Shown here: piece by piece, positions 9,784 to 56,676 of the stretch
Layout of the letters: each line of letters starts with the position of its first letter
How positions within the stretch are numbered: the first letter of the stretch is position 1
Assembly (NCBI GenBank): GCA_043812195.1
Contig: JBDRML010000001.1
Location: 3,857 to 67,856, forward strand
Source of the DNA: Candidatus Woesearchaeota archaeon
GTDB lineage: Archaea > Nanobdellota > Nanobdellia > SCGC-AAA011-G17 > PNOQ01
Direction of reading: 5' to 3'
Length of the DNA stretch: 64,000 nt
The notes under the pieces: model-generated
Told to the model about the DNA's origin: nothing
Seen by the model: only the letters and a program-made list of their open reading frames with translations
Database searches by the model: none
Program-made: the position numbers and the translations under genes

Positions 9784-9823
9784 CAAAAGGCTTTTAAACT
9801 AATTCTTTTCAATTTTTAAGTAT

Positions 9824-9898: not shown

Positions 9899-9947
9899 TT
9901 CACAATCTTAAGTTAATTTTATATATACTTCAATCATTATTATTTCT

Positions 9948-21838: not shown

Positions 21839-21912
21839 ATAACTTATATTAATTTTTATTTATAAATCACTTTCGCTGGTGGTTGTCGACCTTGTCAACC
21901 TGTAGTATAAAA

Positions 21913-22512
21913 TTATCCAAAAACTAAACCAGAATCTTCAATCTTAAACTTCAAAATCTTCTCTTCAGGCTTTAAAATAACAGCTTTCCTAGGTTCCTTT
22001 TTTAATTCAACTAAAAACTTAGCAAAACCCAAAACCATCTTTCCACCTAAATATTTTTGCTCACCTTCCATATTAGAATAAACTTGATTAGTCATAATAA
22101 TAGGAATATCAAGATCTTCTGCAACATGTGTTAATTTCCTTAAATTAAGCAAAAGTCTTTTATTAACCTCTCCATAATCTCCATCCTGCAAAGCCTTTCT
22201 ATACTGCATTCCTATTGTATCTATAATAATCAAACCAAAATCACCATTCTTAGTTATTTCTTCAATATTATTCAGAAAATTAACCTGCTCATCAAAATTC
22301 TTAGCTCTATAAACTAAAATATTAGCCAATTCTTTTTCAAAATCAGGTTTCATTTGCTTTAATCTATCTGTTGAAAACCCCCCTTCTGTATCTACAAATA
22401 AAACTTTTTTATTTTCTGCTGCCTTTAATGATAACTGCATACATAGAGTTGTCTTTCCAGTAGCTGCAGGGCCGAATATCATACTTATTTTTTTCTTTGG
22501 AAAATCTAGCAT
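21913..22512 (-). CDS. radB: RadB (archaeal RecA-family ATPase)
   Basis: IFGPAATGKTTLCMQL and FVDTEGGFSTDRLKQM closely match archaeal RadB blocks; length ~200 aa. Confidence 0.8.
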   Translation of the reverse strand: MLDFPKKKISMIFGPAATGKTTLCMQLSLKAAENKKVLFVDTEGGFSTDRLKQMKPDFEKELANILVYRAKNFDEQVNFLNNIEEITKNGDFGLIIIDTIGMQYRKALQDGDYGEVNKRLLLNLRKLTHVAEDLDIPIIMTNQVYSNMEGEQKYLGGKMVLGFAKFLVELKKEPRKAVILKPEEKILKFKIEDSGLVFG

Positions 22513-28821: not shown

Positions 28822-29097
28822 GTGATTAAAATGGATATTGCTATAACAAAAATGAGTTCAAAAGGACAGATTGTAATACCGTCTGAGATGAGAGAAGATA
28901 TACCAGAAGGTGAAAAAATGATAATAATAAAAGATAAAGGAAAGATAATAATGAAAAAAGCAAGCGACATGGACAAACAACTAAACGAAGATTTAGAATT
29001 CGCTAGAAGGACTGAAGAAGCATACCAAAGAATTGAGAGAGGAGAAGGAATCAAGATGGATTTTGATAACTTTATTAAAGAGATAAAGAAATGGTGA
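28822..29097 (+). CDS. AbrB/MazE/SpoVT-type antitoxin
   Basis: MSSKGQIVIPSEMREDI swapped-hairpin motif; overlaps the downstream toxin gene. Confidence 0.6.
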   Translation: MIKMDIAITKMSSKGQIVIPSEMREDIPEGEKMIIIKDKGKIIMKKASDMDKQLNEDLEFARRTEEAYQRIERGEGIKMDFDNFIKEIKKW

Positions 29098-29336
29098 ATG
29101 TTATATTTGATCCTATTTTTAAAAAGAAATTTATGAAAATAAAAGATAAACAATCAAAAAATAAGATAATAAAACAAATCCAAAAAATAAAAGAAAACAC
29201 AGAGATTGGAAAACCAATGAAATATAGCAGAAAAGGCAGTCGAGAACTTTATGTTTTTCCATTTAGACTATCTTATATGATTAAAAGTAGCGAATTAATT
29301 TATATTTTAGACATTTATCATAAAGATGAACAATGA
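29091..29336 (+). CDS. RelE/ParE-family toxin
   Basis: 81 aa; ...RELYVFPFRLSYMIKSSELIYILDIYHKDE resembles the RelE/ParE C-terminal pattern; a 7-nt overlap with the antitoxin gives a typical type II TA operon. Confidence 0.55.
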   Translation: MVNVIFDPIFKKKFMKIKDKQSKNKIIKQIQKIKENTEIGKPMKYSRKGSRELYVFPFRLSYMIKSSELIYILDIYHKDEQ

Positions 29337-30390: not shown

Positions 30391-33300
30391 ATGATGGACT
30401 GGAGTTTATTCAATAAAAAAGAGTATTTAGAACCTTTAGTATTTTCTAATGGAAAATCACAATTAGATGTTGTTAAAGAAGTAATACAAGCAATTAAAGA
30501 AGGACATAAGATAATTTTCATAAAAGGTATCTGTGGCACAGGTAAATGTCTAGAAAGAGATTCCAGCGTATTTTGTAAACCAAATAATGAAAATCATTTT
30601 AGTTATCATAAAATTTCGGAGTTAGTTGGGAAGGGAGGAGATATTTTAGCTCTTGATAGAATGGGAAAAATCACAGAGTCTAAGTTTAAAAATGTGAGAA
30701 ATACTGGTATTAAAAAATTATACAAGATAAAAACAAGAACTGGAAGAGAAATAGTTGCTTCAGCAAATCATCCATTACTTACTATAACAAAAGAAGGGAT
30801 AGAATGGCTGCCCTTAGAAAAACTAAATAATTATTCCTATATTTGTCTTCCAAATAAAATTTCTTTTGGAAGAGAATTAGATTATGATAATGATAAGATT
30901 AAAATTCTTGCCCATTTAATTGCAGAAGGTAAATTAGGGGACAAGGCTGGGTCTCCAATTTATTTTCAAAGTCCAAGTAAAAACCCAGAAATAAGAAAAG
31001 ATTATATCTCTTCATTAAGAAGAGCATTCCCAGATGGAGAAATAAAAAGCTATTGTGAAAAAGATGTTGCTATTGTTTTTAGAAATATGAACACAACTAA
31101 AGGAGCCACAAACAAACTAAGACTTTTCATTAGGGAGCATGGGTTGGATAAAAAAAAGTCCAGCCAAAAATTTATACCCAAAATAATATTTAATTTAAAA
31201 AAAGAAAAAATTTCTTTATTTTTAAGTAGATTGTTTTCTTGTGATGGAAGTATCTATCAAAAAAAGAAGGATGGCCAAATAACTATTGAATATTCTTCTA
31301 TCTCAAAAAGATTAATTCAAGACGTTTCTCTTTTACTTCAAAGATTTGGGATCCAACATACAATTACTTCGAAAAAATTTAAAGAAAATAAAGAATATGC
31401 TTGGATAATTTGTATTTCAAATCACAACTCTCTTAGAAAATACATAGATGAAATTGGCTTTGTTGGTAGAAAACAAAGATTAGCTTTGAAATTATACAAC
31501 AAACTAAAAATACATAAATTTACCAATATTGATAAAGTTCCAAGAGTCATACGTGAATATTTAAAAAAGAAGGGATATAACTATACTGAACTCGATAGAT
31601 TTTTAAATTACGAAAAAATTGAAGAATCTAGAAAGAAAAAAAGTTTTAAACAGATAAGAAAAGATAAATCAATAGAAACTCCTTTTGTATTTAATCAACA
31701 AAAAATTGATTTTTTAAGAAGCCATATTAAAAAAATAAATAATTATATCAAAGATGACACTCTTTCTTTTATTTGCAATGAAGATATCTTTTGGGATAAA
31801 GTAAAATCAATTGAATATATAAAAAAAGATGAAACTTATGATTTAGAAGTTCCAAAAAATCACAATTTTATTGCGAATGGAATCATTGTTCATAATTCTG
31901 CCATTGCATTAAATATAGCTAAAGAAATCGGTAAAACATCTATTGTAGTCCCAGTTAAACCATTGCAAAAACAATACGAAGAAGATTACACAGATAAAAT
32001 GTATGTTCTAAAAAAAGATGGTAAAAAATTAAAAATAGCCATTATTGATGGAAGAAACAACCATAGATGTATCTTTAAATCAAATTGCATGGCAGATGAC
32101 AGATATATTCCATGTACTATTGAAATAAAAGAAGATAACCTTAACTTACTAAAAGAATACCTACACCAAAATAAATTTGTAAACACCAAAGGCTTCAAAA
32201 AATTAAAAGACATCAGAAGAAAATCCATAGCACCTGCATGCCCTTATTGGTCTCCAATTTTACACAAAGATATGTTTGAACAAGATTATAGCATAGAAGA
32301 CGCAGAAGAAATAAATTATCAAGGTCTTCAAAACAAAACATTCACTTATTTCCAAAGAGAAAAAGGCTGCAAGTATTACAACCAATTCTTAAATTACCTT
32401 AATTCAGATGTTATTGTATTTAATAGTAAGAAATACGAACTTGAAAATTTAATGGATAGAAAACCAGCAACAGAAATAGAAATAATAGATGAATGTGATG
32501 AATTTTTAGATAATCTTGCAAATGAAAAAAAAATAAACCTAGATAGACTATCACTGGTGCTTTCAAATGTAAAAACTAAAGATTTCGATTTAAAAGAAAT
32601 AACAATAGAAATTAACGATTTAGTTCTTGAATTATTAAATGATAAAAAAATCTCTGAAAAAGAAATATTTCCAATCAAAAAAACTAAAATCTATCCATTA
32701 TTAAAACATTTCACATCAAATGCAGGATTAATCGATTTAGAAGAAGAAGAAACAGATTATTTATACAATGTATATCAAACAGGAAAATCTTTTGAAGATT
32801 ACTTTGATGAAACCTATGTAACATTTTATAGAAATGATAGAAATGAATTATTAGTTAATATAATTACAGTAGATCTTGAAAAAAAATTAAAAGAGTTCTT
32901 AGATAAAAATAAGGCTTTTGTAATGATGAGCGGAACTATCCATTCTGAAATGATATTAAAAGAAGTTTTCGGAATTAAAGATTTTAAGATAATAGAAGCA
33001 GAAGTAAATCCAATTGGCAAAATCAAAAAAATAAGAACAAAATTAGAAAAATGTTTTGATTATCAAACTTTAAAACAAAATGGAGCTAGAGAAGCATACT
33101 TAGATGCTCTTTCTAGAGCTGTAGAAGTAGCTGAAAAACCGGTTTTGGTTCATGTGAATGCATTTAAGGATTTGCCATCTAAGGAAGAGTGTTTACGGTT
33201 TAATATTTCAAATTTGAAAACCAAAGAAGAGCTTATGATCGAACAAAATGAATATAGGCGTGGTGAATTAGTCAAAAAATTTAAAGATAAGGAAATTGAA

Positions 33301-33576
33301 GTTCTTTTTTCAACTAAATGTAATAGGGGCGTAGATTTTCCAGGTGAAATTTGTAATAGTATTATATTCACAAAATATCCATATCCTAATGTAAGTTCTT
33401 TATTTTGGCAAATATTAAAGAAAAGTAAGCCTGAATATTATAGTATGTTCTATAAAGATAAAGCTGAAAGAGAATTCTTGCAGAGAGTTTACAGGGGTCT
33501 TAGGTCAGAAAAAGATCATATAAACATTTTAAGCCCGGATATTAGGATTTTGAATTCCATTGGGTTGGTTAAGTGA
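30391..33576 (+). CDS. XPD/Rad3 (DinG)-like Fe-S SF2 DNA helicase, intein-containing
   Basis: Walker A GICGTGK|...|S is interrupted by an intein; 4-Cys cluster (HRC, SNC, IPC, PAC); DEAH-like IIDECDEF; C-terminal RGVDFPG helicase motif. Confidence 0.7.
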   Translation: MMDWSLFNKKEYLEPLVFSNGKSQLDVVKEVIQAIKEGHKIIFIKGICGTGKCLERDSSVFCKPNNENHFSYHKISELVGKGGDILALDRMGKITESKFKNVRNTGIKKLYKIKTRTGREIVASANHPLLTITKEGIEWLPLEKLNNYSYICLPNKISFGRELDYDNDKIKILAHLIAEGKLGDKAGSPIYFQSPSKNPEIRKDYISSLRRAFPDGEIKSYCEKDVAIVFRNMNTTKGATNKLRLFIREHGLDKKKSSQKFIPKIIFNLKKEKISLFLSRLFSCDGSIYQKKKDGQITIEYSSISKRLIQDVSLLLQRFGIQHTITSKKFKENKEYAWIICISNHNSLRKYIDEIGFVGRKQRLALKLYNKLKIHKFTNIDKVPRVIREYLKKKGYNYTELDRFLNYEKIEESRKKKSFKQIRKDKSIETPFVFNQQKIDFLRSHIKKINNYIKDDTLSFICNEDIFWDKVKSIEYIKKDETYDLEVPKNHNFIANGIIVHNSAIALNIAKEIGKTSIVVPVKPLQKQYEEDYTDKMYVLKKDGKKLKIAIIDGRNNHRCIFKSNCMADDRYIPCTIEIKEDNLNLLKEYLHQNKFVNTKGFKKLKDIRRKSIAPACPYWSPILHKDMFEQDYSIEDAEEINYQGLQNKTFTYFQREKGCKYYNQFLNYLNSDVIVFNSKKYELENLMDRKPATEIEIIDECDEFLDNLANEKKINLDRLSLVLSNVKTKDFDLKEITIEINDLVLELLNDKKISEKEIFPIKKTKIYPLLKHFTSNAGLIDLEEEETDYLYNVYQTGKSFEDYFDETYVTFYRNDRNELLVNIITVDLEKKLKEFLDKNKAFVMMSGTIHSEMILKEVFGIKDFKIIEAEVNPIGKIKKIRTKLEKCFDYQTLKQNGAREAYLDALSRAVEVAEKPVLVHVNAFKDLPSKEECLRFNISNLKTKEELMIEQNEYRRGELVKKFKDKEIEVLFSTKCNRGVDFPGEICNSIIFTKYPYPNVSSLFWQILKKSKPEYYSMFYKDKAEREFLQRVYRGLRSEKDHINILSPDIRILNSIGLVK
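30547..31896 (+). other. intein (450 aa) with LAGLIDADG homing-endonuclease domain, inserted in the helicase P-loop
   Basis: starts with Cys after GTGK, ends ...IIVHN followed by Ser; LAGLIDADG blocks ILAHLIAEGKLGD and LFLSRLFSCDGSIY. Confidence 0.8.
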
Positions 33577-33616
33577 TTTATTTTAGCGAGAGGTGTCTCG
33601 CGCTCTCTTTTAGATA
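33514..33616 (+). repeat. palindromic cassette-boundary repeat, copy 6 (long form; 5' part is the helicase 3' end)
   Basis: core TTAGCGAGAGGTGTCTCGCGCTCTCTTTTAGATAAG at 33583-33616; the upstream 60 bp is shared with copies 7, 12, 13 and 17. Confidence 0.85.
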
Positions 33617-33656
33617 AGTTTTTATATGTTTGGATACTATGCTATGATATATTAAA

Positions 33657-33974
33657 ATGGGAAAAAGAACAACAGAATTTGTTTTGGGACTGCTTGGAGG
33701 AATTTTTGGTTTTGGAACTGCTTTCTTTGGGTTTTTTTTTAGTTTAATTGCTACAGAAATAGGTGGCTCTATCCCTTGGATATTTGCTGGTTCTATAGTT
33801 GCTATTGTTGGGTCTGTATTTGTTAAATCAAAAGCTAAAATCGGAGGGATTATAATGCTCCTAGGTGGGATTACAATACTTATTTCTAGTGGTTTATTTG
33901 GAATATTACCTTTTGTATTATTATTTATAGCTGGTCTTATGGGATTAATTAAGAAGGATGGCAAAAGAAAATGA
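33657..33974 (+). CDS. small Gly-rich membrane protein
   Basis: 3 TM helices; + strand preferred over the overlapping antisense ORF 33578..33964 because of the ATGA coupling to the next gene. Confidence 0.45.
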   Translation: MGKRTTEFVLGLLGGIFGFGTAFFGFFFSLIATEIGGSIPWIFAGSIVAIVGSVFVKSKAKIGGIIMLLGGITILISSGLFGILPFVLLFIAGLMGLIKKDGKRK

Positions 33975-34720
33975 AACTTAATCTTTTAATATTTTTATTT
34001 TTAATTATGGTTGGTTTATTTTTTATAAGTGGTTGTCAACCTAATGTTAATCCTGAAATTAAAGAAGGATGTACTTCAGATAGTTGTATAAGTTCAGAAT
34101 TTATTTCATGCGAACAACAACAAAATGGGATTTATATAGGAATAAATAAAGGTAAAGTTGTTGGAAAATGTGAAGTTGAATGTTTATCAAATGATGACTG
34201 TTTAAGTAATCAAGAATGTGTAGATAGTAAATGTCAGATAATTGAAGAAAGTATAATACAAGGTCCAGGATTTAATAGAGACACTCCATTATCTTTAAAT
34301 ACTCTCGGAGAAATTACAATGGGTTATGAATGGAGTCAGTTAGCAAATATAAAAATAACTATAAGTGGAATTAAGAGGGGAAGTTCTGCATGGTCTATGA
34401 TTGAAGAAGCTAATATGTTTAATGATGAACCCCCTTCTGGAAAAGAATATTTATTAACTAAAATTAAAGTTGAAGTTATAAGTACTTCCGATAATAATGC
34501 ATATGACCTAAGTTCTTATAATTTTGATGCAGTTTCTAGTAGCGGAATTGTTTATGATAAAACTTATGTTGTTGAACCCGAACCTAGTTTCGGCGGAGAA
34601 ATTTACTCTGGAGGCATGAAGGAAGGTTGGAAAACTTTTGAAGTAAATGTCGGAGATACAACACCTTTATTGAGAGTAAGTGGTGCTAATGATAAAGATT
34701 TGTGGTTTAAACTTTATTAA
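33971..34720 (+). CDS. lipoprotein
   Basis: lipobox FISGC; Cys-rich N-terminal region. Confidence 0.55.
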   Translation: MKLNLLIFLFLIMVGLFFISGCQPNVNPEIKEGCTSDSCISSEFISCEQQQNGIYIGINKGKVVGKCEVECLSNDDCLSNQECVDSKCQIIEESIIQGPGFNRDTPLSLNTLGEITMGYEWSQLANIKITISGIKRGSSAWSMIEEANMFNDEPPSGKEYLLTKIKVEVISTSDNNAYDLSSYNFDAVSSSGIVYDKTYVVEPEPSFGGEIYSGGMKEGWKTFEVNVGDTTPLLRVSGANDKDLWFKLY

Positions 34721-34810
34721 AATTAAAAAGAAAAAAAAGAATCATTTTCTATAGCCCTAACTGTTCATAATATTGTGAGTTCCTCCTGGGGCTTCGAACA
34801 AAATTAAAAA

Positions 34811-34908
34811 GATAATATAAATATTTTAAGTCCAGATATTAGGATTTTGAATTCTATTGGATTGGTTAAGTAAGCGAAATGTGTCTAGCGCTCTCTTTTA
34901 GATAATCT
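34811..34908 (+). repeat. palindromic cassette-boundary repeat, copy 7 (long form, intergenic)
   Basis: gataatataaatattttaagtccagatattaggattttgaattctattggattggttaagtaagcgaaatgtgtctagcgctctcttttagataatc. Confidence 0.85.
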
Positions 34909-34936
34909 ATATAAATCAAATTAAATAATTTATTTT

Positions 34937-35377
34937 ATGACCCCAAAATACCTATGGCATGGCTCCACAAAAAAAGTTAATATCATTAAACCTTCAAAAG
35001 CCATAGATTTATCTAAACATCCAGATAGTAATAGAAAAGGAGTCTATGCTACCGATTTAAAAGAGCTTGCAATAGAATTTGGTTTAGCAGATAAAAAATT
35101 ACATAAATATGCAGATTATAGTAAAAAACCAGTTCAAATTGTACTTATAGAAGGAGATATAAGAAAAGGCAAGAAATTTTATTTATATAAACTTAAAAAT
35201 AAAGGATTCAAAGAAATGCCCAAAAAATCACATCAATGGGTATCTTTCAAAGAAATAAAACCATTAAAAATTGAAGAATTAAATGTTGATGATTATTTAC
35301 ATTTGATTAGAAAAGCAAATAAAAAAGATAAAGAGTATTATTTTAGTCTTATAGGAAAGTTTAAAAAAGTTAAGTAA
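34937..35377 (+). CDS. hypothetical protein
   Basis: ORF track; the cassette ends at repeat copy 8. Confidence 0.4.
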   Translation: MTPKYLWHGSTKKVNIIKPSKAIDLSKHPDSNRKGVYATDLKELAIEFGLADKKLHKYADYSKKPVQIVLIEGDIRKGKKFYLYKLKNKGFKEMPKKSHQWVSFKEIKPLKIEELNVDDYLHLIRKANKKDKEYYFSLIGKFKKVK

Positions 35378-35410
35378 GCGAGAGGTGTCTCGCGCTCTCT
35401 TTAGTAAGCT
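35374..35410 (+). repeat. palindromic cassette-boundary repeat, copy 8
   Basis: GTAAGCGAGAGGTGTCTCGCGCTCTCTTTAGTAAGC overlapping the stop codon. Confidence 0.85.
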
Positions 35411-35522
35411 TTTTAAGTTCTTCTAGATTTCCAATTTCATGCAAAGAAAAAGACGGTTTGATAAGATAGACATATGCATAATATCTACAATTTATGCTGG
35501 GAGTAGATTTTATATGTAAAAA

Positions 35523-36881
35523 ATGATGAAAGAAGACAAACCAAAAAAGTTCGGCCTTAAATCGCCATTAAATGCTCAGTTTGAACTTACTTTTGCATGC
35601 CCCAGCCTATGTTCACATTGCTATAATTATTGGAGATATTTAGAAGAAAAAGAAATGGTCAAAATTGAAAAAGAACTTGGCCCACACCATTTTTTAAGTA
35701 TTGCAGATAAGATAGCAGAAGCAGAAATTTTTTCTATAACGCTTACTGGGGGAGAACCTTTATTAAGAAGAGATATTCTTTATGGTGTAATAGAAAGATT
35801 AAATTCTAAAAATGTTGAAACCAACATTAATTCAAATTTAATGTTAATTACGGATGAAGATTTGGCTAGAATGGAAAGCTTACAAGTAGGGGGGTTTCTC
35901 ACTTCATTCCACACATATGATGAAGAAAAATTTGATAAAATTTCTAATTTAAATGGAGCATTTAGAAAAACAATTAGAGGGATAAGTTTGGTAAGGAGAA
36001 ATAAAAGAAATCCAAGCACGAATATGGTTGTTTCTCAAATAAATAAGGGAGATGTGTACCAAACTGGAAAATTTTTATATAGCAACTTTGGAATAAAACG
36101 TTTTAGTGCTACACCTATTAATCCCTGTACAAATGCAAAAGCTCATCTTGATATGAGATTAAGCAAAGAAGAAACCATAGAAACACTAGAGGATTTAGTA
36201 AGGTTAGAGCAAGATTTAGGAATCTCTACCGAAGTTCTTGAACCAATTCCTTATTGTTTAATTTATGATAATCCAAGCTTTGAGAAGTTTATGAAAAAAA
36301 CTTGTACAGCAGGCAAATCAACAATTGCAATAGACCCCACAGCAAATGTTAGAGCATGCATACATCTAACAAAAAATTATGGTTCTTTATTAGAAGAAAG
36401 TTTAGAAGATATCTGGGGTAGAATGGCAGAGTGGAGGCAAAGTGGATATTACCCTGATGAATGCAAATCTTGTTCTGTAATAGATAAGTGCAAAGGAGCC
36501 TGTAGATCTGAAGCAGAATCTGTTTATGGAGACATAACCTCCAGACCACCCCTGATGACATCTCCTCTAGATACAAAATTAGAATCGACACACCAAAATA
36601 CAGAAATTTCACTAAAAGGATTTGATAATAGTTATTTAACTACTAATAATGTAAGATATAGGAAAGAACATGGGGGGTATATATTATTTTCACCATCAAA
36701 AAAGTATTTATTTTTAAACCAAGGAGAATTTGAAGCATTAACAGAATTAACTGAAAAACAAACATTTAAATTATCTGATCTATTACCAAATACAGATCAA
36801 AACGACCACAAAATCACCAATTTTTTAAAAAAGATGGTTGGAGCAAATATTATTGTTCCTAAGGAGGAAAAAATAAAATGA
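35523..36881 (+). CDS. radical SAM/SPASM-domain peptide-maturase-like enzyme
   Basis: CPSLCSHC (CxxxCxxC) near the N-terminus; C-terminal Cys-rich SPASM-like region (CKSCSVIDKCKGAC). Confidence 0.8.
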   Translation: MMKEDKPKKFGLKSPLNAQFELTFACPSLCSHCYNYWRYLEEKEMVKIEKELGPHHFLSIADKIAEAEIFSITLTGGEPLLRRDILYGVIERLNSKNVETNINSNLMLITDEDLARMESLQVGGFLTSFHTYDEEKFDKISNLNGAFRKTIRGISLVRRNKRNPSTNMVVSQINKGDVYQTGKFLYSNFGIKRFSATPINPCTNAKAHLDMRLSKEETIETLEDLVRLEQDLGISTEVLEPIPYCLIYDNPSFEKFMKKTCTAGKSTIAIDPTANVRACIHLTKNYGSLLEESLEDIWGRMAEWRQSGYYPDECKSCSVIDKCKGACRSEAESVYGDITSRPPLMTSPLDTKLESTHQNTEISLKGFDNSYLTTNNVRYRKEHGGYILFSPSKKYLFLNQGEFEALTELTEKQTFKLSDLLPNTDQNDHKITNFLKKMVGANIIVPKEEKIK

Positions 36882-37099
36882 TACAAGATTTAAAGGAAGT
36901 CATTGCAAACAGTTCAAAAAAGACAGAAAGATTACAAATTATGACTACAAGCGGAGACTTAAAATTAAGTTTATACCAAAAATTATCTAAGACCAATGAC
37001 ATTGAAGGAGCCTACTCAGTTGATTCGTGCACATGTGATTGTGTCTGCGATGGAGACTGTGAAGTGTGTGATTGCGATACCTGTTACACAAGATACTAA
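36878..37099 (+). CDS. Cys-rich precursor peptide (RiPP-like)
   Basis: ATGA overlap with the rSAM gene; leader with conserved SKTNDIEG; core DSCTCDCVCDGDCEVCDCDTCYTRY. Confidence 0.6.
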   Translation: MIQDLKEVIANSSKKTERLQIMTTSGDLKLSLYQKLSKTNDIEGAYSVDSCTCDCVCDGDCEVCDCDTCYTRY

Positions 37100-37113
37100 C
37101 AACCTAACTAATT

Positions 37114-37809
37114 ATGAGCAATAAAAAAGTATATTTTGAAAAAAGCAGAGAAAAAGAAGAAAGAAATTATTATATGATGGCTAATTTTAAATGTGGCCCT
37201 ATTTCTCGTGGTAATTTTTTTGATGAAGAATTTACTAAAAAAATAAAAAATAAAAAATTCGAAGACGTAAGAGATATAATAAAACAAAAAATAAAAAAAG
37301 ATTACGAATCGCTGACATTCGATTTAGATGGGTTTCTTAGAAATGCTAAAAAAGAATGGAGCAAGGTCGAAGAAGAATATCTTAAAAAATTAGAAAAGAT
37401 TATGCAAAAGCCATTTTTAGCCAACAAAGTAATTTGCTACTCAACAATTCTCCCAAGATGCAATTATTGGTATAAACTGCCTTGTCCATGGTTTAAGCTT
37501 AGTATCCTCTATCCTAAAAAAAAATGGAACCAGGTGTGTATGCACGAAATAATGCATTTTATGTTCCATTGGCACTACTGGGATTCCTGTAGAAAACATT
37601 TAAATGAAGAGAAAACTTGGCACTTAAAAGAAGCATTAACATTTATACTCAATGAAGAATTTTCAGATTTATTAAAAGAAAAAGATATTGGATATCCTCC
37701 ACATCAAGAATTAAGAAAGAAATTACTTAAGATTTGGAAAAAAGATAAGGATTTTAAAAGTTTTTTAGATAAAAGTATCAAAGTTATGAAAATGTGGAAA
37801 ATTGAGTAA
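37114..37809 (+). CDS. HExxH-motif protein (putative metallopeptidase)
   Basis: HEIMHFMFHWH; occupies the same position as the HExxH gene in the paralogous module at 44180. Confidence 0.45.
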   Translation: MSNKKVYFEKSREKEERNYYMMANFKCGPISRGNFFDEEFTKKIKNKKFEDVRDIIKQKIKKDYESLTFDLDGFLRNAKKEWSKVEEEYLKKLEKIMQKPFLANKVICYSTILPRCNYWYKLPCPWFKLSILYPKKKWNQVCMHEIMHFMFHWHYWDSCRKHLNEEKTWHLKEALTFILNEEFSDLLKEKDIGYPPHQELRKKLLKIWKKDKDFKSFLDKSIKVMKMWKIE

Positions 37810-37835
37810 GCGAGAGGTTTCTCGCGCTCTCTGAA
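37806..37835 (+). repeat. palindromic cassette-boundary repeat, copy 9
   Basis: GTAAGCGAGAGGTTTCTCGCGCTCTCTGAAAAG overlapping the stop codon. Confidence 0.85.
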
Positions 37836-37868
37836 AAGATTTATAAAAATGAATATCCTACCAAAAAT

Positions 37869-38549
37869 ATGAAAAAATCCTATATTATTACTGGATTGCT
37901 TATTGTTATATTTTTATTAATATTAAATACACTTAATATAATCGCAGAACTTAATCCCTTTGTAAATAATATTGGAAATACTAAAGAAGATGAAATCCCT
38001 ATTAATGGGATTCCATATACTGAAAAAGAATTGAAAGATATACTTATTTTAGAAACTAAAAATATAGAAGTTCAGGATAAAACTTTAGACGAGATTATAA
38101 GTGAGATAAGACCAAGAATAAAAACATTCACTGGAAACAAATATAAATTATTTGAACCTGTACTTTCTGTAGATAGAGGTTCTCCAGAAGCTACGGTCTT
38201 TCTTTTGAGTGGTAATGGATATATTGATGATAATGCATATGATGGTTATTATATATTAATTAGGTGGGATGAAGAATCTGCAGATATTATAGAAGAATCT
38301 ATTGCTTGGAGAGGCATTCCTATTGAATATAAAAAAATGGCTGAGAAAATAGCTAGAGAGAATGAAGAAATTATGAATAAAACCCCCTATTTAATAGATG
38401 TTAGATGGATACCAGAAAAATTAGGGCAGGTACAACTATTTTTTGATGATATGTCTGCAATTCCAGAAAGCCCCATGGCATTTATCATAGTAGATTTAAA
38501 TACAAAAGAAATTATTTCTATCGAGAAAAGATATTGGGATGGTTGGTAA
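37869..38549 (+). CDS. secreted protein
   Basis: N-terminal signal/TM. Confidence 0.45.
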   Translation: MKKSYIITGLLIVIFLLILNTLNIIAELNPFVNNIGNTKEDEIPINGIPYTEKELKDILILETKNIEVQDKTLDEIISEIRPRIKTFTGNKYKLFEPVLSVDRGSPEATVFLLSGNGYIDDNAYDGYYILIRWDEESADIIEESIAWRGIPIEYKKMAEKIARENEEIMNKTPYLIDVRWIPEKLGQVQLFFDDMSAIPESPMAFIIVDLNTKEIISIEKRYWDGW

Positions 38550-38573
38550 GCAAGTGCTCTCTTTGAGATAAAT
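38541..38573 (+). repeat. degenerate cassette-boundary repeat, copy 10 (hairpin deleted)
   Basis: ggttggtaagcaagtgctctctttgagataaat keeps the GGTTGGTAAG and CTCTCTTT-AGATAA flanks. Confidence 0.55.
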
Positions 38574-39094
38574 TAATCTACATATGCTTTTAAATACCCT
38601 GTTTTTGTATGAGGAAGACCACCAACCCCTACATAATCAAATACAATATCAGCTTTAAATAAACTTCCAGGTATCCCAATATATCCATCGCCACAATCGT
38701 CTGATCTCCAGGTAGTTAATACATCAGCTGGCATAGTATCTGATTCTGTTCCCATGCATCCTGTAACACATGAGAGTGTACAAATAACTTCACCACCATC
38801 AAATCTTATTACGGCCGGGGTTGTTATTATCACATTTACAGAGTAGATATCATCACCAATACCATTTCTTAAATCAAGCGTTATTCTATCATTATAACCA
38901 TCTAGGTATTTTACTAAATAGTCATCACAAAAGATTCCAGGTGTTATCACACATTTTCCAGATGCAAGAGTTGGGTAACTATTTTGGAGATTTGATATTT
39001 TATTTTCTGATTCAAATGAAATTGCCAGCACAATAAAAGGTATAACAAGAATAGAAATTATAATAATAGGCAATATAAAGTATCTTTTTTTCAT
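38573..39094 (-). CDS. secreted protein
   Basis: signal peptide. Confidence 0.45.
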   Translation of the reverse strand: MKKRYFILPIIIISILVIPFIVLAISFESENKISNLQNSYPTLASGKCVITPGIFCDDYLVKYLDGYNDRITLDLRNGIGDDIYSVNVIITTPAVIRFDGGEVICTLSCVTGCMGTESDTMPADVLTTWRSDDCGDGYIGIPGSLFKADIVFDYVGVGGLPHTKTGYLKAYVD

Positions 39095-39137
39095 GTTATT
39101 AATTTGAATTTTGATTTATTTAAGGATTATGGTATTA

Positions 39138-39175
39138 GTAAAGCGAGAAGTGTCTCGCGCTCTCAATAGTAAGGT
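39138..39175 (+). repeat. palindromic cassette-boundary repeat, copy 11
   Basis: GTAAAGCGAGAAGTGTCTCGCGCTCTCAATAGTAAGG. Confidence 0.85.
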
Positions 39176-39211
39176 TTATAAATAGTAATTTGGTTTTGAA
39201 TTTTAGTAAAA

Positions 39212-39481
39212 ATGAAAAAATATACACCAATAATAAAAAATATAGTTGCAATAGTTGATTTAGAAACTAGTTTAGATTTAGAGAGCCTATCAACTCAACT
39301 AGAAAATGTTAGTGAATACAATAAAACAAAATTTCCAGGATTATGTTTAAAATCAAAAATCCCCGGATTATCTTATCTTCTATTTGAAAATGGAAAGGTT
39401 GTTTTAACAGGGGCTAAATCTGAAGAAGAATTACAACAGGGAACTGAATATATATTACACATTTTGAAGGATAATCTTTAA
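39212..39481 (+). CDS. single-repeat TBP-domain protein (half-TBP)
   Basis: IKNIVAIVDLETSLDLESLSTQL...FPGLCLKSKIPGLSYLLFENGKVVLTGAKSEEE matches one TATA-binding-protein repeat (IxNIVa..dL...ldL....FPGL..r...p.....iF.sGK.v.TGAKs.e); only 89 aa, so it is a single repeat. Confidence 0.6.
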   Translation: MKKYTPIIKNIVAIVDLETSLDLESLSTQLENVSEYNKTKFPGLCLKSKIPGLSYLLFENGKVVLTGAKSEEELQQGTEYILHILKDNL

Positions 39482-39508
39482 TAGTTAATAAAACTTTTCT
39501 CTAACAAA

Positions 39509-39596
39509 CATATAAACATTTTAAGTCCTGATATTAGAATTTTTAATTCTAAGTTGGTTAAAAGTAAGCGAGAGGTTTCTTGGGTTCTCTTAAAAA
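39509..39596 (+). repeat. palindromic cassette-boundary repeat, copy 12 (long form, right hairpin arm degenerate)
   Basis: catataaacattttaagtcctgatattagaatttttaattctaagttggttaaaagtaagcgagaggtttcttgggttctcttaaaaaaagc. Confidence 0.8.
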
Positions 39597-39743
39597 AAGC
39601 AAAAAGCTTTAAAAGTTAATTTCCTTGCTATTAAACAAAAGATATGATAGATTTGGTTGTAATATGGAAAATGACAAAAACAATATACTTAAACAAGGAT
39701 TTTAAACCAAAACTATTGGCAGTGGCAGATAAACTTAGAAATA

Positions 39744-41045
39744 ATGAAGATGAATAAAAAAGAAATTTCAGAACTTATAAAAACAGGAGAAGGATATACT
39801 CTTGAATTCAAAGAAAGTTTAAGTAGTTCTATTGGAAAGACAATATGCGCTTTTGCAAATTCTTCAGGAGGAAAAATTATTTTAGGAGTTACAGATAATG
39901 GGGTTGTTAGGAGTTATAATCTAAATAACGCTGACCGTTCAAAAATTGAAAATATTGTAAGGAATATGGATCCTTCATTTCGAGTAAATATAGAACAGGT
40001 TTCAGATTTAGTTGTGATTTATGTTCCTGAAGGTAAAGAGAAACCTTACGCCATAAACGGGCATTTTTATTTAAGGCAAGGAGCAAATTCACAACAATTA
40101 AGGCGGGATGAAATTAGATCATTATTCCAGAGAGAGAATTTAATTAGATTTGATCGTAAAGCCAATCAAGAATTTGATATGAAAGAAGATTTTGATAAGA
40201 AAAAATTCAAATCATTCATTACCAAAACTGGGATTGACAGTTCTTTGCCTAAACAACATATCTTAAAGAATTTAGGTTTAATTACTGAAAATAAGCTTAA
40301 TAATACAGGAGTTTTATTTTTTTCACATCGCATTTCTAAGTTTTTCTTAAATTCTGTCATCACCTGTGTGTTATATAGCGGGAGAACAAAAACAAAGATT
40401 TTGGATAAAAAAGAATTTGATGCAGATTTTGTTTCTAACTTCAATAATGCCGTCATTTTTGCATTAAAAACACTTAAAACAGAATATGTTATTGAAAAAG
40501 TTGAAAGGGAAGAAAAACATGAAATCCCTGAAAAAGTTTTGCGTGAATTAATAATCAATGCAATGATTCACAGAAATTATTTTTCAGAAGGCCGTATTTT
40601 AATTGAGATTTATGCAGATAGAATTGAAATTACTAATCCAGGAGAGCTATTATTTAAGAAAAGTGATTTGGGGAAAAGAAGCCTTGCCAGAAATCCTCTT
40701 TTAGTTGATTTAGTTCACAGGCTGCAATTTGTGGAAAAAATAGGCTCAGGTATTAAAAGAGTCAAAGAATTAATGGGGAGTAAAATTAAATTTGATATAG
40801 ATTCTGACTGGTTTGGAGTGATTATTAAGAGAAATGACACTGTAAATGACACTGTAAATGACACTGTAAAAATCATTTTATCTGAATTAAGAATTAATCC
40901 TAATATTACTTATGATGAACTAGGAAAGAAAATTGGTAAAAGCAGGAGCACAATTATTCGTCATATTGACAAACTAAAAGAAAAGGGTATTGTAAAGAGA
41001 ATTGGCTCAGATAAAGGAGGACATTGGGAAGTGGTTGGAAAATGA
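39744..41045 (+). CDS. AlbA_2 (Schlafen-like) + HATPase_c_4 + wHTH putative regulator (COG2865-like)
   Basis: N-terminal LEFKESL...ICAFANSSGGKIILGV (AlbA_2); mid NAMIHRNY; C-terminal HTH; contains a 9-bp x3 tandem repeat. Confidence 0.65.
   Translation: MKMNKKEISELIKTGEGYTLEFKESLSSSIGKTICAFANSSGGKIILGVTDNGVVRSYNLNNADRSKIENIVRNMDPSFRVNIEQVSDLVVIYVPEGKEKPYAINGHFYLRQGANSQQLRRDEIRSLFQRENLIRFDRKANQEFDMKEDFDKKKFKSFITKTGIDSSLPKQHILKNLGLITENKLNNTGVLFFSHRISKFFLNSVITCVLYSGRTKTKILDKKEFDADFVSNFNNAVIFALKTLKTEYVIEKVEREEKHEIPEKVLRELIINAMIHRNYFSEGRILIEIYADRIEITNPGELLFKKSDLGKRSLARNPLLVDLVHRLQFVEKIGSGIKRVKELMGSKIKFDIDSDWFGVIIKRNDTVNDTVNDTVKIILSELRINPNITYDELGKKIGKSRSTIIRHIDKLKEKGIVKRIGSDKGGHWEVVGK
40833..40868 (+). 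repeat. tandem 9-bp repeat AATGACACTGTA x3 (encodes NDTV x3)
   Basis: read directly from the sequence. Confidence 0.8.
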
Positions 41046-41102
41046 AAGATCTAAAGAAGAATTTAAAGAGAGTTGTGTGCACGTTTATGGTAAACTACTA
41101 CT

Positions 41103-41675
41103 ATGAAAAAGAAAAGGCAAAAACCATGGGAAACAAAATTAATTGAAAAAATTATTGATGTTACTGGTTATTGTTTTCCTGGAGCGGAAGAAGAAGCATT
41201 GAAGCAGTTTAACAAAGTAAAAGCTAAAGAAATTTCTGTAATGCGAACTAAAGTAGATTTTGATCGTGGTTTTCAAACATGGTTTTTATTAAAATATTTA
41301 ATCGAAGAAAAATTTACACCAATGGAAGTTATTTCTGGAAACCCGTCAAATTATTTTACAAAAAGAGAATTGCAAATGGTTGATAACTTTCTCAATAATA
41401 AAGAGGGCTTTTATGAAATAATATCCATCTCAAGAGACAAAAAAGACTTTACCATAAAGAATGTTATGAATAGCGAGATTATTTCTGTAAAAACAATTGA
41501 TTTTCCCAACAAATTAAGTAAAGGAGAACATATTTATACAATTCCTGTGCAAAAGCTTGATGGAAACTATTTCTTTTACGGCAATGTAACATGTTATTCA
41601 AAAGAGAATTGTGTAGATATTGTAAATCTTACAAAGATAGAAAAAGCACATAGGTTAAGTTTATATGAGAGATGA
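41103..41675 (+). CDS. hypothetical protein
   Basis: ORF track. Confidence 0.4.
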   Translation: MKKKRQKPWETKLIEKIIDVTGYCFPGAEEEALKQFNKVKAKEISVMRTKVDFDRGFQTWFLLKYLIEEKFTPMEVISGNPSNYFTKRELQMVDNFLNNKEGFYEIISISRDKKDFTIKNVMNSEIISVKTIDFPNKLSKGEHIYTIPVQKLDGNYFFYGNVTCYSKENCVDIVNLTKIEKAHRLSLYER

Positions 41676-41985
41676 ATTAGTCAAAAAATTTAAAGATAAG
41701 GAAATTGAAGTTCTTTTTTCAACTAAATGTAATAGGGGTGTAGATTTTCCAGGTGAAATTTGTAATAGTATTATATTCACAAAATATCCATATCCTAATG
41801 TAAGTTCTTTATTTTGGCAGATATTAAAGAAAAGTAAGCCTGAATATTATAGTATGTTCTATAAAGATAAAGCTGAAAGAGAATTCTTGCAAAGAGTTTA
41901 TAGAGGTCTTAGGTCAGAAAAAGATCATATAAATATTTTAAGTCCAGATATTAGGATTTTGAATTCCATTGGGTTGGTTAAGTAA
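41665..41985 (+). pseudogene. duplicated 3' fragment (106 codons) of the XPD-like helicase gene
   Basis: translation is identical to the last 104 aa of 30391..33576; nucleotide near-identity with 33259-33576; followed by repeat copy 13. Confidence 0.75.
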
Positions 41986-42015
41986 GCGAGAGGTTTCTCG
42001 CGCTCTCTTAATTAA
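41983..42015 (+). repeat. palindromic cassette-boundary repeat, copy 13
   Basis: GTAAGCGAGAGGTTTCTCGCGCTCTCTTAATTA. Confidence 0.85.
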
Positions 42016-42762: not shown

Positions 42763-44025
42763 ATGAAAATACTAAAAAGCCCTATTTCAGTTCACTATGA
42801 ATTAACTGAAAATTGCAATCATCGTTGCGAACATTGTTATAATCCCTTTGCGCATATTTCTGAAGAAGTTCCAAAATTAACAAGAGATAGAATAATAGAA
42901 GAATTAGTACAAAATGAAGTATTTCATGTTATCCTTACTGGAGGAGAACCATTATTTTATCAAGATATGGCTGTAGATGCTGTAAAAAGATTAAATAAAA
43001 ATGGAGCTGTTGTTTCTTTAAATTCAAATTTAACTTTAATGGATAGAAATACTGCAGTCTCACTTAAAAAAGCAGGTCTAAAAAGTGCCCTAACTAGCAT
43101 AACTCACTATGATCCAAATATTCATGATAAAATTACTAAAATAGATGGAAGTTTAGAAAGATGTATTTCTGGAATTAATTATCTTGTAAATCAAGAAATA
43201 CCTGTCTCAGTAAATATGGTCGTAACAAAAGACAGAGTTGACGATGTTTACAAAACAGGAGAAATGTTAGTAGATTTAGGTATTACAGGTTTTTCAGCAA
43301 CAAGAATGGCGCCAAACAGAGATAATCTAAAAGAAATTTTAGATGCTCAAGAAGTAAAACATATGTTAGATCAATTATTATTATTAAAAGAAAAATACGG
43401 CATTAATGTTTCAAGCTTAAACAATCTTCCAAGATGTTTTAGTTCTGACAAAAAATATGGGATATTTATGAATAGATCTTGTAATGGTGGAAGAACAAGT
43501 GCAACAATAACTCAGATAGGTGGATTAAAATCTTGTCATCATTTAGATGAAGTTGTTGGAAATATAATAGAGGAAGGATTATCAACAGTTTGGGAAAAGG
43601 CTCCAGTATTAAAAGATGAAAGATTGCCAAAAGGATGTTTAGCATGTGATGTAAATGAAAACTGTGCAGGAGGCTGTAGACAAACTGCAGAAGTTGTTAG
43701 AAACAAAAAAACAGGCCTAGATCCAATTGCAAGAGGAAAAGAACAAATAATAACCTTAGATCCACCAGAACTGCCAAATAAAGATAGCACATTAAGATTT
43801 ATGAAAGATACATTATATAGAAAAGAAAAAAATGGAGGGGTTTTATTTAGAAATCCAAGAAATTATGCAATATTAAATGAATCACAATATCAGTTAGCTT
43901 TAAAACTGTCAAACAACTCTTTTTCAATAAATGAATTGAAAGATTTATTTGGAAATGAATTAAGTTCCTTTATGGAAAGATTATACCAAAAAGGTTTAAT
44001 AGGGGAGGCAAAATGGAAAAATTAG
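42763..44025 (+). CDS. radical SAM/SPASM-domain peptide-maturase-like enzyme (paralog of 35523..36881)
   Basis: CNHRCEHC (CxxxCxxC); C-terminal CLACDVNENCAGGC SPASM-like. Confidence 0.8.
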   Translation: MKILKSPISVHYELTENCNHRCEHCYNPFAHISEEVPKLTRDRIIEELVQNEVFHVILTGGEPLFYQDMAVDAVKRLNKNGAVVSLNSNLTLMDRNTAVSLKKAGLKSALTSITHYDPNIHDKITKIDGSLERCISGINYLVNQEIPVSVNMVVTKDRVDDVYKTGEMLVDLGITGFSATRMAPNRDNLKEILDAQEVKHMLDQLLLLKEKYGINVSSLNNLPRCFSSDKKYGIFMNRSCNGGRTSATITQIGGLKSCHHLDEVVGNIIEEGLSTVWEKAPVLKDERLPKGCLACDVNENCAGGCRQTAEVVRNKKTGLDPIARGKEQIITLDPPELPNKDSTLRFMKDTLYRKEKNGGVLFRNPRNYAILNESQYQLALKLSNNSFSINELKDLFGNELSSFMERLYQKGLIGEAKWKN

Positions 44026-47008: not shown

Positions 47009-47878
47009 ATGTTAGGAAGAAATCATGTTTCAATTTCATTAGCTACAATTATGCCTTTCTTAATACCTCTTATCTTTTTAGAATCAAATAATTCAATAAT
47101 ATATGGTTTTGCTTTTTTAATATCTATTCTTGTTGGATCTCTGCTACCCGACGCAGACTGTGGAGGAAAATCAAAACTCTATTACGATTTTAACATATTC
47201 TACCAATTAATTATTCCAATTACCAAATTAACTGTTTGGACATTTAAACTTTCAAGTGTTAAAAAAAAGTTGTCTACAAAGTTTTCAGAATTACAAGATG
47301 TAAATCATGAACATAGAGGGATAATGCATTCACCCATAGGAACGATAGTCAGTTCTTTTTTGTTAACTTTAATTATTCTTATCATAATGACACTTATTGC
47401 TAAAACTAATCTATTATTAGTTTTAATTATCTTTCTAGGATTAATTATTGGACAAATTCTACATTTATTAGAAGATTCCTGCACTGTTACTGGGATAAAT
47501 TGGATGTTTCCATTTGGAAAAAAAGAATTAAAAGGGCAAATATACACATTTGAGTGGAAATATCAAAATAAAAAAGATATCCGGCCGATGATTTATGTTT
47601 ATTCCCTGGTGGCTGTGTCCATTATATCCTTATTAGTAAACTCATTTGGGGCTGTGAATAATCTTTTTTTATATTATTTAATAACAACAATCGCAGTTTT
47701 GATAATTTGGATAATAATTATCAAGATATCTCAAAGTCAGTCTATTTTTTGGTATAGAGACGCCGAAAAAATAAAACAAATACAAAAAAAACAAAGAAAA
47801 GCTTTAAAAAAATTTACAGGAATAAAAAGAAAAAAACACAAAAAAAGATCATATAAACATTTTAAGTCCAGATATTAG
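47009..47878 (+). CDS. polytopic membrane protein (metal-dependent hydrolase-like?)
   Basis: 6+ TM helices; LLPDADCGG; the 3' end runs into the long-form repeat. Confidence 0.4.
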   Translation: MLGRNHVSISLATIMPFLIPLIFLESNNSIIYGFAFLISILVGSLLPDADCGGKSKLYYDFNIFYQLIIPITKLTVWTFKLSSVKKKLSTKFSELQDVNHEHRGIMHSPIGTIVSSFLLTLIILIIMTLIAKTNLLLVLIIFLGLIIGQILHLLEDSCTVTGINWMFPFGKKELKGQIYTFEWKYQNKKDIRPMIYVYSLVAVSIISLLVNSFGAVNNLFLYYLITTIAVLIIWIIIIKISQSQSIFWYRDAEKIKQIQKKQRKALKKFTGIKRKKHKKRSYKHFKSRY

Positions 47879-47940
47879 GATTTTGAATTCTATTGGGGTA
47901 GTTAAGTAAGCGAGAAGTGTCTCTCACTTTCTTTTAGAAA
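47838..47940 (+). repeat. palindromic cassette-boundary repeat, copy 17 (long form)
   Basis: gatcatataaacattttaagtccagatattaggattttgaattctattggggtagttaagtaagcgagaagtgtctctcactttcttttagaaa. Confidence 0.85.
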
Positions 47941-50289: not shown

Positions 50290-50892
50290 ATGAATAAAAA
50301 AGTACTAATCGCAACACTGTATTCACCAGAACCAGTGTTATTAGCTGCCAATAGGCTTGGCCCAGATAGATTAATACTATTAATAGATAAAAAATCTAAT
50401 AAACACCAAGAAGATTCTCTAAAAGTGATTAATAACTCTCTGGGTAGAATTATAGATGTTAAACCAATTAAAGTTGATGTTTATGACATTGTAGGGGTTG
50501 CTAAAAAGGTTGTAGAAGTCATAGATATGCAGCCTAGAGATGATAGATTATTTGTAAATGTAACCTCTGGTAGAAAAACACAAGCTCTTGGTTTGTTATT
50601 TGGAGCTTATGCTAGACATGATAGAATTAATAAAATAGCTTATAATCCTGAAGAAGATAAGAATTCTGTTGTTTATTTGCCTAGATTGTCTTTTAAGTTA
50701 AATGAGAGCCAAAAAAAGATATTAGATGTAGTTTCAGAAGTTCCAGGTGGTAATTATGCTGAATTAGCTGAAAAGGCCGGTGTTTCAAAAGCAATGTTTT
50801 ATAGGGCTACAGATGAGTTAAAAGACATGGATCTTGTATTAAATGAAGATGGTTTAAAATTAACAGATGCAGGAGAGATAGCGAGGTTGTAG
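50290..50892 (+). CDS. Rossmann-like (CARF/Csa3-like?) + C-terminal wHTH regulator
   Basis: N-terminal KVLIATLYSPEPVLLAANRLGPDRLILLI; C-terminal wHTH ILDVVSEVPGGNYAELAEKAGVSKAMFYRATDELKDMDLV. Confidence 0.4.
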   Translation: MNKKVLIATLYSPEPVLLAANRLGPDRLILLIDKKSNKHQEDSLKVINNSLGRIIDVKPIKVDVYDIVGVAKKVVEVIDMQPRDDRLFVNVTSGRKTQALGLLFGAYARHDRINKIAYNPEEDKNSVVYLPRLSFKLNESQKKILDVVSEVPGGNYAELAEKAGVSKAMFYRATDELKDMDLVLNEDGLKLTDAGEIARL

Positions 50893-50908
50893 GGGGGCTA
50901 AATTAAAA

Positions 50909-56675: not shown

Positions 56676-56676
56676 A

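Follow-up and report, generated by a model that had tools for sequence, protein, structure and literature searches.

Why does a DPANN archaeon carry a gene for half of a TATA-binding protein (TBP) in the middle of an array of unrelated gene cassettes? The question arises in a 64,000-nucleotide (nt) stretch of a Candidatus Woesearchaeota genome (contig JBDRML010000001.1, positions 3,857 to 67,856; hereafter the window, with position 1 as its first letter), where an open reading frame (ORF) at 39212-39481 on the plus strand begins with ATG and encodes a protein of 89 amino acids (aa), here called half-TBP. A first-pass annotation had read it as one TBP repeat carried in a possibly mobile cassette. 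Our analysis confirms the repeat and its exact position, treats the ORF as an intact gene and places it, probably, on a mobile unit larger than the cassette. The overall picture that we favor, a mobile, intact single N-type TBP lobe that acts as a homodimeric competitor or modulator at TATA sequences, is a tentative one, to which we give somewhat less than even weight.

An intact gene for a single TBP lobe

The sequence motifs on which the first reading was based are all located in the protein: IKNIVAIV (residues 8-15), FPGL (residues 41-44) and NGKVVLTGAKS (residues 60-70). The Pfam profile of the TBP repeat (PF00352) matches with 78.7 bits (E=3e-22; gathering cut-off 22.9 bits) over profile positions 2-84 of 85, and this single stretch is the sole domain match above cut-off. 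A phmmer search of PDB sequences returned only TBPs down to an E value of about 1e-21 (solved TBPs at 1e-21 to 1e-26, best 3e-26), and each PDB TBP matched aligned to the query via both of its lobes. NCBIfam TBP models were matched over half of the model length, with at most 77 bits against cut-offs of at least 181, which is the expected outcome because the query is a single lobe. Canonical TBP has two tandem lobes (~180 aa), whereas this ORF has 89 codons closed by a double stop, TAA TAG. No second TBP lobe, adjacent or distant, was found in the window: a tblastn search of the lobe against all six frames returned only itself at E<1. The same protein is on record, from a contig of 70.7 kb, under the title 'MAG: hypothetical protein ABIH25_00310 [Candidatus Woesearchaeota archaeon]'.

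Structure prediction leads to the same assignment. The AlphaFold (AF2) model made from the single sequence was weak, with a predicted local distance difference test score (pLDDT) of 57.6. The model made from a multiple sequence alignment of 66 archaeal-size TBPs reached a pLDDT of 93.6 and a predicted TM-score of 0.80, with the order S1-H1-S2-S3-S4-S5-H2. When this second model was compared with the PDB using Foldseek, the first 44 matches were all TBPs (TMq 0.77-0.87, root-mean-square deviation mostly 1.2-1.7 Å). A domain of the RNase HIII type, against which the first-pass annotation had proposed to check the fold, was ruled out, as DUF3378 matched at E=0.012 only and the Foldseek match to RNase HIII had E=0.23 and TMq 0.39. 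It is almost certain that the 89-aa protein is a TBP-type lobe and not one of the RNase HIII/DUF3378 variety.

The features closest to the gene are as follows.

39175-39184, plus strand: TATA-like box TTTATAAATA, 28-37 nt upstream of the ATG, read from the sequence.
39212-39481, plus strand: half-TBP gene, N-lobe-type, 89 aa (PF00352, AF2, Foldseek).
39509-39565, plus strand: remnant of the 3' end of a helicase gene (DinG/XPD-type), 83-84% identical to the other copies.

The start of the ORF resembles a natural archaeal TBP N-terminus and its end coincides with the end of helix H2. The TATA-like box is likely to be the promoter of the half-TBP gene, in which case the transcript would be near-leaderless. 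A fragment of a split two-lobe gene was ruled out by reading the flanks, by the six-frame search, which contained no C-lobe, and by the presence of the same ORF in two further contigs. The first-pass annotation had allowed that the ORF might turn out to be a TBP fragment disrupted by the repeat. What we find instead is a double stop about 24 nt before the junction (the nearest recombination scar, the 57-nt helicase remnant) and no C-lobe downstream.

It is unlikely, in our judgment, that the ORF is a decaying remnant, that is, what is left of a TBP paralogue whose C-lobe was lost in cassette recombination, an N-terminal half that is now functionless. Such an origin would suit a protein that is N-lobe-like (see below), stops at a natural lobe boundary and is an orphan without a family, and it would suit a gene with a helicase scar 24 nt past its stop and a degenerate motif to its right. 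However, the best identity of the protein to any TBP lobe found is 45%, and at this distance it still retains all near-invariant fold and DNA-contact residues (eight of eight near-invariant alignment columns: N10, V12, Y36, F41, L56, F58, G61 and G67) in an open frame. The gene also has its own TATA box, with no trace of a C-lobe downstream. Since the named Woesearchaeota TBPs are only 41-42% identical to half-TBP, a truncation would be old and a functionless ORF should have decayed by now. Old debris is thus not what we see, because a non-functional fragment is unlikely to stay open and to keep its invariant residues. Nor does the ORF look like a recent fragment, because a close full-length relative would then be expected and none was found among ~15 billion proteins. 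Judged by its sequence, the half-TBP ORF is an intact gene.

Half-TBP resembles an N-terminal lobe and lacks the TFB-docking glutamates

To which of the two TBP lobes does half-TBP correspond? Against the query, the N-lobe outscores the C-lobe in 101 of 146 two-lobe TBPs, and the difference in closeness between the lobes gives p=0.007 in a paired Wilcoxon test. In a neighbor-joining tree of 132 lobes, built without support values, the nine nearest neighbors of half-TBP are all N-lobes, and its enclosing clade consists of 46 N-lobes and 6 C-lobes. Because half-TBP nests among the N-lobes of two-lobe TBPs, the tree and the scores are suggestive of a derived N-lobe rather than a relic from before the duplication. 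The proposal that the protein represents an ancestral half-TBP state is therefore not borne out.

In a column-wise comparison with the 66 archaeal-size TBPs, the set of DNA-contact residues is intact (N10, V12, F41, L56, F58, K62, V64, T66 and K69). We take these to be the counterparts of yeast N69, V71, F99, L114, F116, K120, V122, T124 and K127.

The stirrup differs from the consensus of C-lobes. In half-TBP it reads Y36-N37-K38-T39-K40-F41, whereas the C-lobe consensus at these positions is Y-E (69%)-P (98%)-E (84%)-Q-F. The acidic pair that docks TFB is thus missing, with N37 and T39 in its place, and K38 replaces a proline conserved at 98%. The two stirrup glutamates (C.L3.2 and C.L3.4) are conserved contacts to an Arg and a Thr of TFB/TFIIB (Ravarani et al. 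2020, PMC7221094). Because both are absent, a homodimer of half-TBP would have no canonical TFB-docking stirrup.

The gene probably travels on a 2.84-kb unit

The half-TBP gene lies among copies of a 23-nt palindromic motif, AGCGAGAGGTGTCTCGCGCTCTC. The window holds 13 copies at up to three mismatches, against none expected from shuffled sequences, and 16 copies at up to four mismatches. Fifteen of them are co-oriented between 22.5 and 48.3 kb (22555-48337), and one more lies on the minus strand at 63062-63084. The motif has no exact match in the GTDB representative genomes. An exact-pattern scan of metagenomes gave 98 loci, only 12 of which are low-GC contigs related to the host genome; the others look like chance single matches. 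These 12 contigs served for comparison, together with a protein look-up that gave two contigs encoding half-TBP identically: L099 (ENA ERZ27247128, 3287 nt) and L066/L100 (JGI 3300014656, 1161 nt). The features that bear on movement are listed here.

30391-33576, plus strand: intact DinG/XPD-type helicase gene (Helicase_C_2) with an intein (Intein_splicing and LAGLIDADG).
33585-33607, plus strand: motif copy just past the helicase stop codon (motif scan, L099 junction), the probable primary insertion site.
39142-39164, plus strand: motif copy at the left boundary (AGCGAGAAGTGTCTCGCGCTCTC), one mismatch, with a 6-bp stem and a 4-nt loop; the L099 and L066 junctions fall here.
39567-39589, plus strand: degenerate motif copy, four mismatches, palindrome broken, no hairpin; probably a boundary that no longer works.
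39744-41045, plus strand: gene of a 433-aa protein with Schlafen/AlbA_2, HATPase_c_4 and winged helix-turn-helix (wHTH) domains (profile matches).
41103-41675, plus strand: gene of a 190-aa protein with no detectable family, within the 2.84-kb unit.
41665-41985, plus strand: 106-aa C-terminal helicase fragment; the DNA at 41662-41961 is 96% identical to 33253-33552.
41985-42007, plus strand: motif copy that bounds the 2.84-kb unit on the right, joined in L066 to the left end of the half-TBP cassette.

Both comparison contigs place other sequence to the left of half-TBP. In L099, the intact helicase gene is followed by the motif and then by the half-TBP cassette, and window positions 33608-39141 are absent. 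In L066, the end of the 190-aa gene and the helicase fragment (approximately window 41505-42007) are followed by the motif and the half-TBP cassette (window 39141-39822). This junction joins the right end of the 2.84-kb unit to its own left end and indicates that the unit exists as a circle or in tandem. To the left of AGCGAGA, both contigs have the sequence of their new neighbor, while the spacer variants (A at position 8 and G at position 11) are those of the half-TBP copy. Because the left flank and the spacer variants differ in origin, the crossover lies in or at the left arm, AGCGAGA. The overlap shared at the junctions is only ~26 nt, and given so short an overlap a misjoin in a k=141 assembly is unlikely.

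Compared with the window, the helicase part of L099 shows 66 differences over 2.6 kb, whereas the 682-nt half-TBP part shows none, although a uniform rate would lead one to expect about 15 or more. This pattern fits a recent exchange of the unit between diverged strains. Across its three contexts (the window, L099 and L066) the half-TBP unit is at least 99.85% identical. Synteny breaks at a motif copy for a third time in another contig, L010, at a point that corresponds to window position 63058. Taken together, we consider it probable from these sequence comparisons that half-TBP is carried on a mobile unit.

The extent of the unit differs from what the first-pass annotation had described, a cassette flanked by repeats. 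The cassette is indeed bounded by the motif, and it has other left neighbors in two assemblies. However, its right-hand repeat is degenerate, and the start of the 433-aa gene is linked to half-TBP in three out of three contexts. For these two reasons, the sequence suggests that the mobile unit is the ~2.84-kb block at 39165-42007 and not the 425-bp cassette alone. Fragments of the helicase gene also mark this region: its 3' end (65-345 nt) is repeated four times downstream, at 34806-34870, 39509-39565, 41662-41985 and 47842-47906, each time with a motif copy directly after it.

The palindromic motif and its cassette array

With its conserved flanks the motif extends over ~40 nt, TTRAGTA...CTCTTTTAGA, that is, TTRAGTA-AGCGAGARGTNTCTCGCGCTCTC-TTTTAGA. 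When folded, it forms only a 6-bp stem with a 4-nt loop (about -6 kcal/mol). Alternatively, it can be read as two inverted arms of 7-10 nt around a 6-nt spacer, in which case the variable positions fall within the spacer. A TATA-like box lies 9-19 nt after 10 of the 16 copies (background 8%, p=6e-8). The stretches between motif copies carry unrelated genes, including radical-SAM/SPASM proteins, a toxin-antitoxin pair, secreted proteins, the helicase with its intein, and the Schlafen/AlbA_2-ATPase-wHTH protein. Several cassettes are multi-gene, with genes on either strand.

Some of the cassette contents deserve a separate description. One cassette (28822-29336, plus strand) holds a MazE/AbrB-type antitoxin together with a ParE/RelE-type toxin, a combination common in chromosomal integron arrays. 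Two cassettes carry radical-SAM/SPASM genes (35523-37099 and 42763-44025, both plus strand). Directly after the first of these genes lies a 73-aa ORF with a Cys-rich C-terminus (CTCDCVCDGDCEVCDCDTC), possibly the precursor of a ribosomally synthesized and post-translationally modified peptide. Near the single minus-strand motif copy there are two RadC-like paralogues on the minus strand (59918-60625 and 63087-63587) with ~77% DNA identity; the second is cut off midway through its JAB domain, where the motif copy follows.

Array sites of this kind bring integrons to mind, and part of the integron pattern is present: 15 co-oriented sites, and junction variants at such sites in L099, L066 and L010. 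The attC sites of integrons are imperfect hairpins of ~55-140 nt with R''/L''-L'/R' boxes. A classical integron was ruled out, because there is no IntI (none among the window ORFs of at least 80 aa) and no attC-type structure, and because most cassettes have their own TATA box. An Rfam scan of the window returned only a tRNA-Lys. No recombinase was found beside the motif copies in L010 or in two further contigs, L014 and L079. The window encodes one tyrosine recombinase:

5562-6188, plus strand: 208-aa tyrosine recombinase made up solely of an Xer-like catalytic domain, closest among PDB sequences to P. abyssi XerA (E=4e-25); no other candidate recombinase lies in the window.

This gene adjoins an HNH endonuclease and a Zot-like ATPase (6245-6607 and 7052-7747) and the tRNA-Lys at 9823-9899, and it may belong to a separate integrated element.

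A possible role for half-TBP

How could a single TBP lobe act in the cell? In the mechanism that we propose, half-TBP, the leftmost gene of the 2.84-kb unit, would be transcribed independently in the chromosome of its Woesearchaeota host, and recombination at the 23-nt motif would move the unit by means of an enzyme that we infer. Two copies of the protein would pair across their S1 strands, as TBP lobes do, to form a symmetric saddle. The saddle would bind TATA sequences or AT-rich minor grooves through Phe41 and Phe58, together with Asn10, Val12, Leu56, Val64 and Thr66. Both of its stirrups would carry Asn37 and Thr39 instead of the TFB-contacting glutamates, so that TATA would be occupied without canonical recruitment of TFB. 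The dimer would then be a competitor or modulator of TBP-dependent initiation and not a replacement TBP.

This competitor mechanism is possible, although we regard it as doubtful. The transcription-modulating or decoy role suggested earlier is plausible: the retained DNA-contact residues and the missing glutamates both suit it. A bolder version appears improbable, namely that an element-borne mini-TBP, symmetric and devoid of a TFB dock, acts as a natural anti-TBP that damps or redirects the transcription of the host or of the cassettes, in an integron-like array with a short site of the Xer type.

Several observations weigh against the picture of a mobile homodimeric competitor. Archaeal N-lobes often lack the stirrup glutamates as well (43% have N at position 37, and only 45% have E at position 39), and their absence from half-TBP may reflect simple N-lobe inheritance and not selection for a decoy role. 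The host's canonical two-lobe TBP was not found within the 64-kb window. No recombinase is linked to the array, as the only tyrosine recombinase of the window lies 16 kb away in an apparently separate element. In L014 and L079, single copies of the motif adjoin ordinary genes, and the motif could be an intergenic element of general occurrence that does no more than provide microhomology. Half-TBP is also an orphan: its 90%-identity cluster consists of one sequence, no relative above 50% identity was found among the matches listed from ~15 billion proteins, and the copies seen in the three contexts are identical in protein sequence.

A different transcriptional role, which we consider quite unlikely, is that of an alternative initiation factor, a symmetric homodimer that drives the promoters of the cassettes or of the element and engages TFB or another partner through a non-canonical contact. 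The intact DNA contacts and the TATA boxes that directly follow the motif in the cassettes are compatible with such a factor. There are also parallels elsewhere, as viral TBPs without the acidic pair evolve together with TFIIB-like partners of their own (PMC7221094), and Halobacterium has plasmid-borne tbp paralogues that include the single-domain TbpA (PMC2121645, PMC3597702). However, no TFB/TFIIB-like protein is encoded among the window ORFs of at least 80 aa, the conserved acidic pair is missing from both stirrups, and a symmetric dimer alone would confer no polarity on a promoter.

With similarly low probability, half-TBP may be an accessory protein outside transcription, a monomeric binder of duplexes or hybrids like RNase HIII's TBP-like N-domain, which would work with the 433-aa protein in defense or in the replication or maintenance of the unit. 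The linkage of the two genes in three contexts points in this direction, as do the matches of the 433-aa protein itself to a PHROG of phage 'DNA helicase' (E=5e-61) and, in a pAgo model, to the Schlafen-like region. Single TBP-fold domains of other proteins are known to bind duplexes (PMC3597702, PMC7221094). However, the three contexts are copies of one element, so their linkage is not evolutionary conservation; the sequence is that of TBP proper, not RNase HIII-like, and half-TBP has no PADLOC or PHROG match. Finally, a living relic of the homodimeric ancestor that preceded the TBP duplication is very improbable, because the lobe, although single, with its DNA-binding residues kept and found in the deep-branching DPANN archaea, nests inside the N-lobe clade instead of outside both lobe clades and is part of a mobile unit within a variable island, with no orthologues found.

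Returning to the homodimeric competitor, the interest of such a protein would be considerable. For the proposal that TBP arose when a homodimeric single lobe was duplicated, natural proteins that allow a test are few, and half-TBP is a compact candidate of 89 aa with its DNA contacts kept. If the homodimeric reading is true, it would provide a natural test of whether TATA can be bound and bent by a half-TBP homodimer, the form postulated as the ancestor of TBP. Should half-TBP indeed block the recruitment of TFB, a mobile element would here disturb archaeal transcription initiation in a new way. The array context may matter as much as the protein, as it amounts to population-level cassette shuffling in a DPANN genome.

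Other loci in the window

A RadA/Rad51-like gene (20687-22512, minus strand) is apparently split by a 383-aa ORF that contains LAGLIDADG. In the comparison contig L086 (positions 1365-1684), 320 nt replace window positions 20677-21905, which suggests a presence/absence polymorphism of an intein at this locus. A defense-type block occupies 50290-59934 on the plus strand, with a CARF-wHTH protein (Csa3-like), a UvrD-PD-(D/E)XK helicase-nuclease (GajB-like matches), and the type III restriction-modification genes Mod and Res. Short tandem or interspersed repeats, composed of CAATCACTCAA-type and CGAACATTCGCCGAAC units, lie in and near ORFs at 1886-2268 and 2921-3012, at the window's left end.

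Comparison with known systems

Archaeal integrons described so far have ordinary attC sites (Ghaly et al. 2022, PMC9668308). The present array resembles integron arrays and clusters of attC sites lacking an integrase (CALINs; PMC9668308) in its long series of co-oriented sites, its small unrelated cassettes, its toxin-antitoxin cassette, its shuffled order and its breakpoints at the sites; as in CALINs, no integrase is adjacent. It differs from integrons in that its sites are 23-nt cores with a 6-bp stem, and in that the cassettes mostly have their own TATA promoter and some are multi-gene with genes on either strand. The array may also be compared with Xer/dif modules (pdif, IMEX): the motif can be read as arm-spacer-arm with its variable positions in the spacer, the crossovers map to the left arm or its boundary, and the window encodes an Xer-like recombinase. 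However, its arms are shorter than the usual 11 nt, its sites are direct and not alternating, and the link between recombinase and sites is only a candidate one. The shuffling of cassettes in this array suggests a mechanism of cassette exchange that is distinct from that of classical integrons.

Searches for relatives of the protein returned two-lobe TBPs for the most part. A word-index search for close relatives gave nothing besides the protein itself. In the HMMER search of representative sequences, two matches reached E<1e-30, one to the query itself and one to a TBP with four repeats (39% identity); the rest of the best 150 matches were all TBPs with at least two lobes. Because multi-lobe proteins rank higher in such searches, single-lobe relatives at 35-50% identity may sit below the matches listed. 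The profile search listed only partial TBPs of 143-160 aa. No viral relative was found in IMG/VR by protein, nor any PHROG match, and a PADLOC search gave no match to a defense-system member. The matches of the IMG/VR profile scan were two-lobe TBPs, with one exception, a TBP gene split by an in-frame stop. The split gene lies on a putative viral contig (L116, positions 2704-3249; UViG_3300000875_000007, GC content 53%), and the stop at 2998-3000 falls exactly between the lobes, so that the N-lobe is encoded by an ORF of 98 aa and the C-lobe lies in a frame of its own. A pseudogene, a split TBP and a gene expressed by read-through are all conceivable here.

Stand-alone (monopartite) TBP-domain proteins of archaea have been described in two groups by Brindefalk et al. 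2013 (PMC3597702), and Ravarani et al. 2020 also mention archaeal single-lobe versions of TBP (PMC7221094), so that calling a half-TBP rare, as the first-pass annotation did, overstated the case. Half-TBP has the features of the monopartite class: one TBP domain, fewer than 150 aa, no further domain, and a context that excludes a split or misannotated two-lobe gene.

The first group, TbpA of halobacteria, clusters among the lobes of genuine TBPs and is close in sequence to the TBPs of its host (PMC3597702); in Halobacterium, tbpA is located on pNRC100 (PMC2121645). Like TbpA, half-TBP is a single TBP-type lobe encoded on accessory or mobile DNA with no second lobe adjoining. However, TbpA homologues are reported to be highly similar to the full-length TBPs of their own species, whereas no TBP lobe found is more than 45% identical to half-TBP. 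The host of TbpA is a haloarchaeon, and that of half-TBP is a DPANN archaeon in which the gene sits in a motif-bounded cassette array.

The second group comprises diverged Thermococcales proteins of ~82-136 aa, for instance P. furiosus NP_578195 (PMC3597702). These are also small stand-alone archaeal proteins of the TBP fold, without a known function and not misannotated TBPs. According to their published description they form a strongly diverged cluster of their own, whereas half-TBP matches PF00352 at E=3e-22 and keeps its DNA contacts; so strong a match to the TBP profile argues against membership in a cluster of the Thermococcales type.

With canonical archaeal TBPs (1mp9, 2z8u and 1ais) half-TBP shares the lobe fold (TMq 0.80-0.87), the Phe pair, the Asn, Val and Thr contacts and an N-lobe-like N-terminus. 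The canonical proteins have two lobes and a Glu-Pro-Glu stirrup for TFB docking, whereas half-TBP has one lobe, from which this motif is missing. Half-TBP is a new example of a known protein class, distinct in its divergence (at most 45% identity), its DPANN host and its setting in a cassette array.

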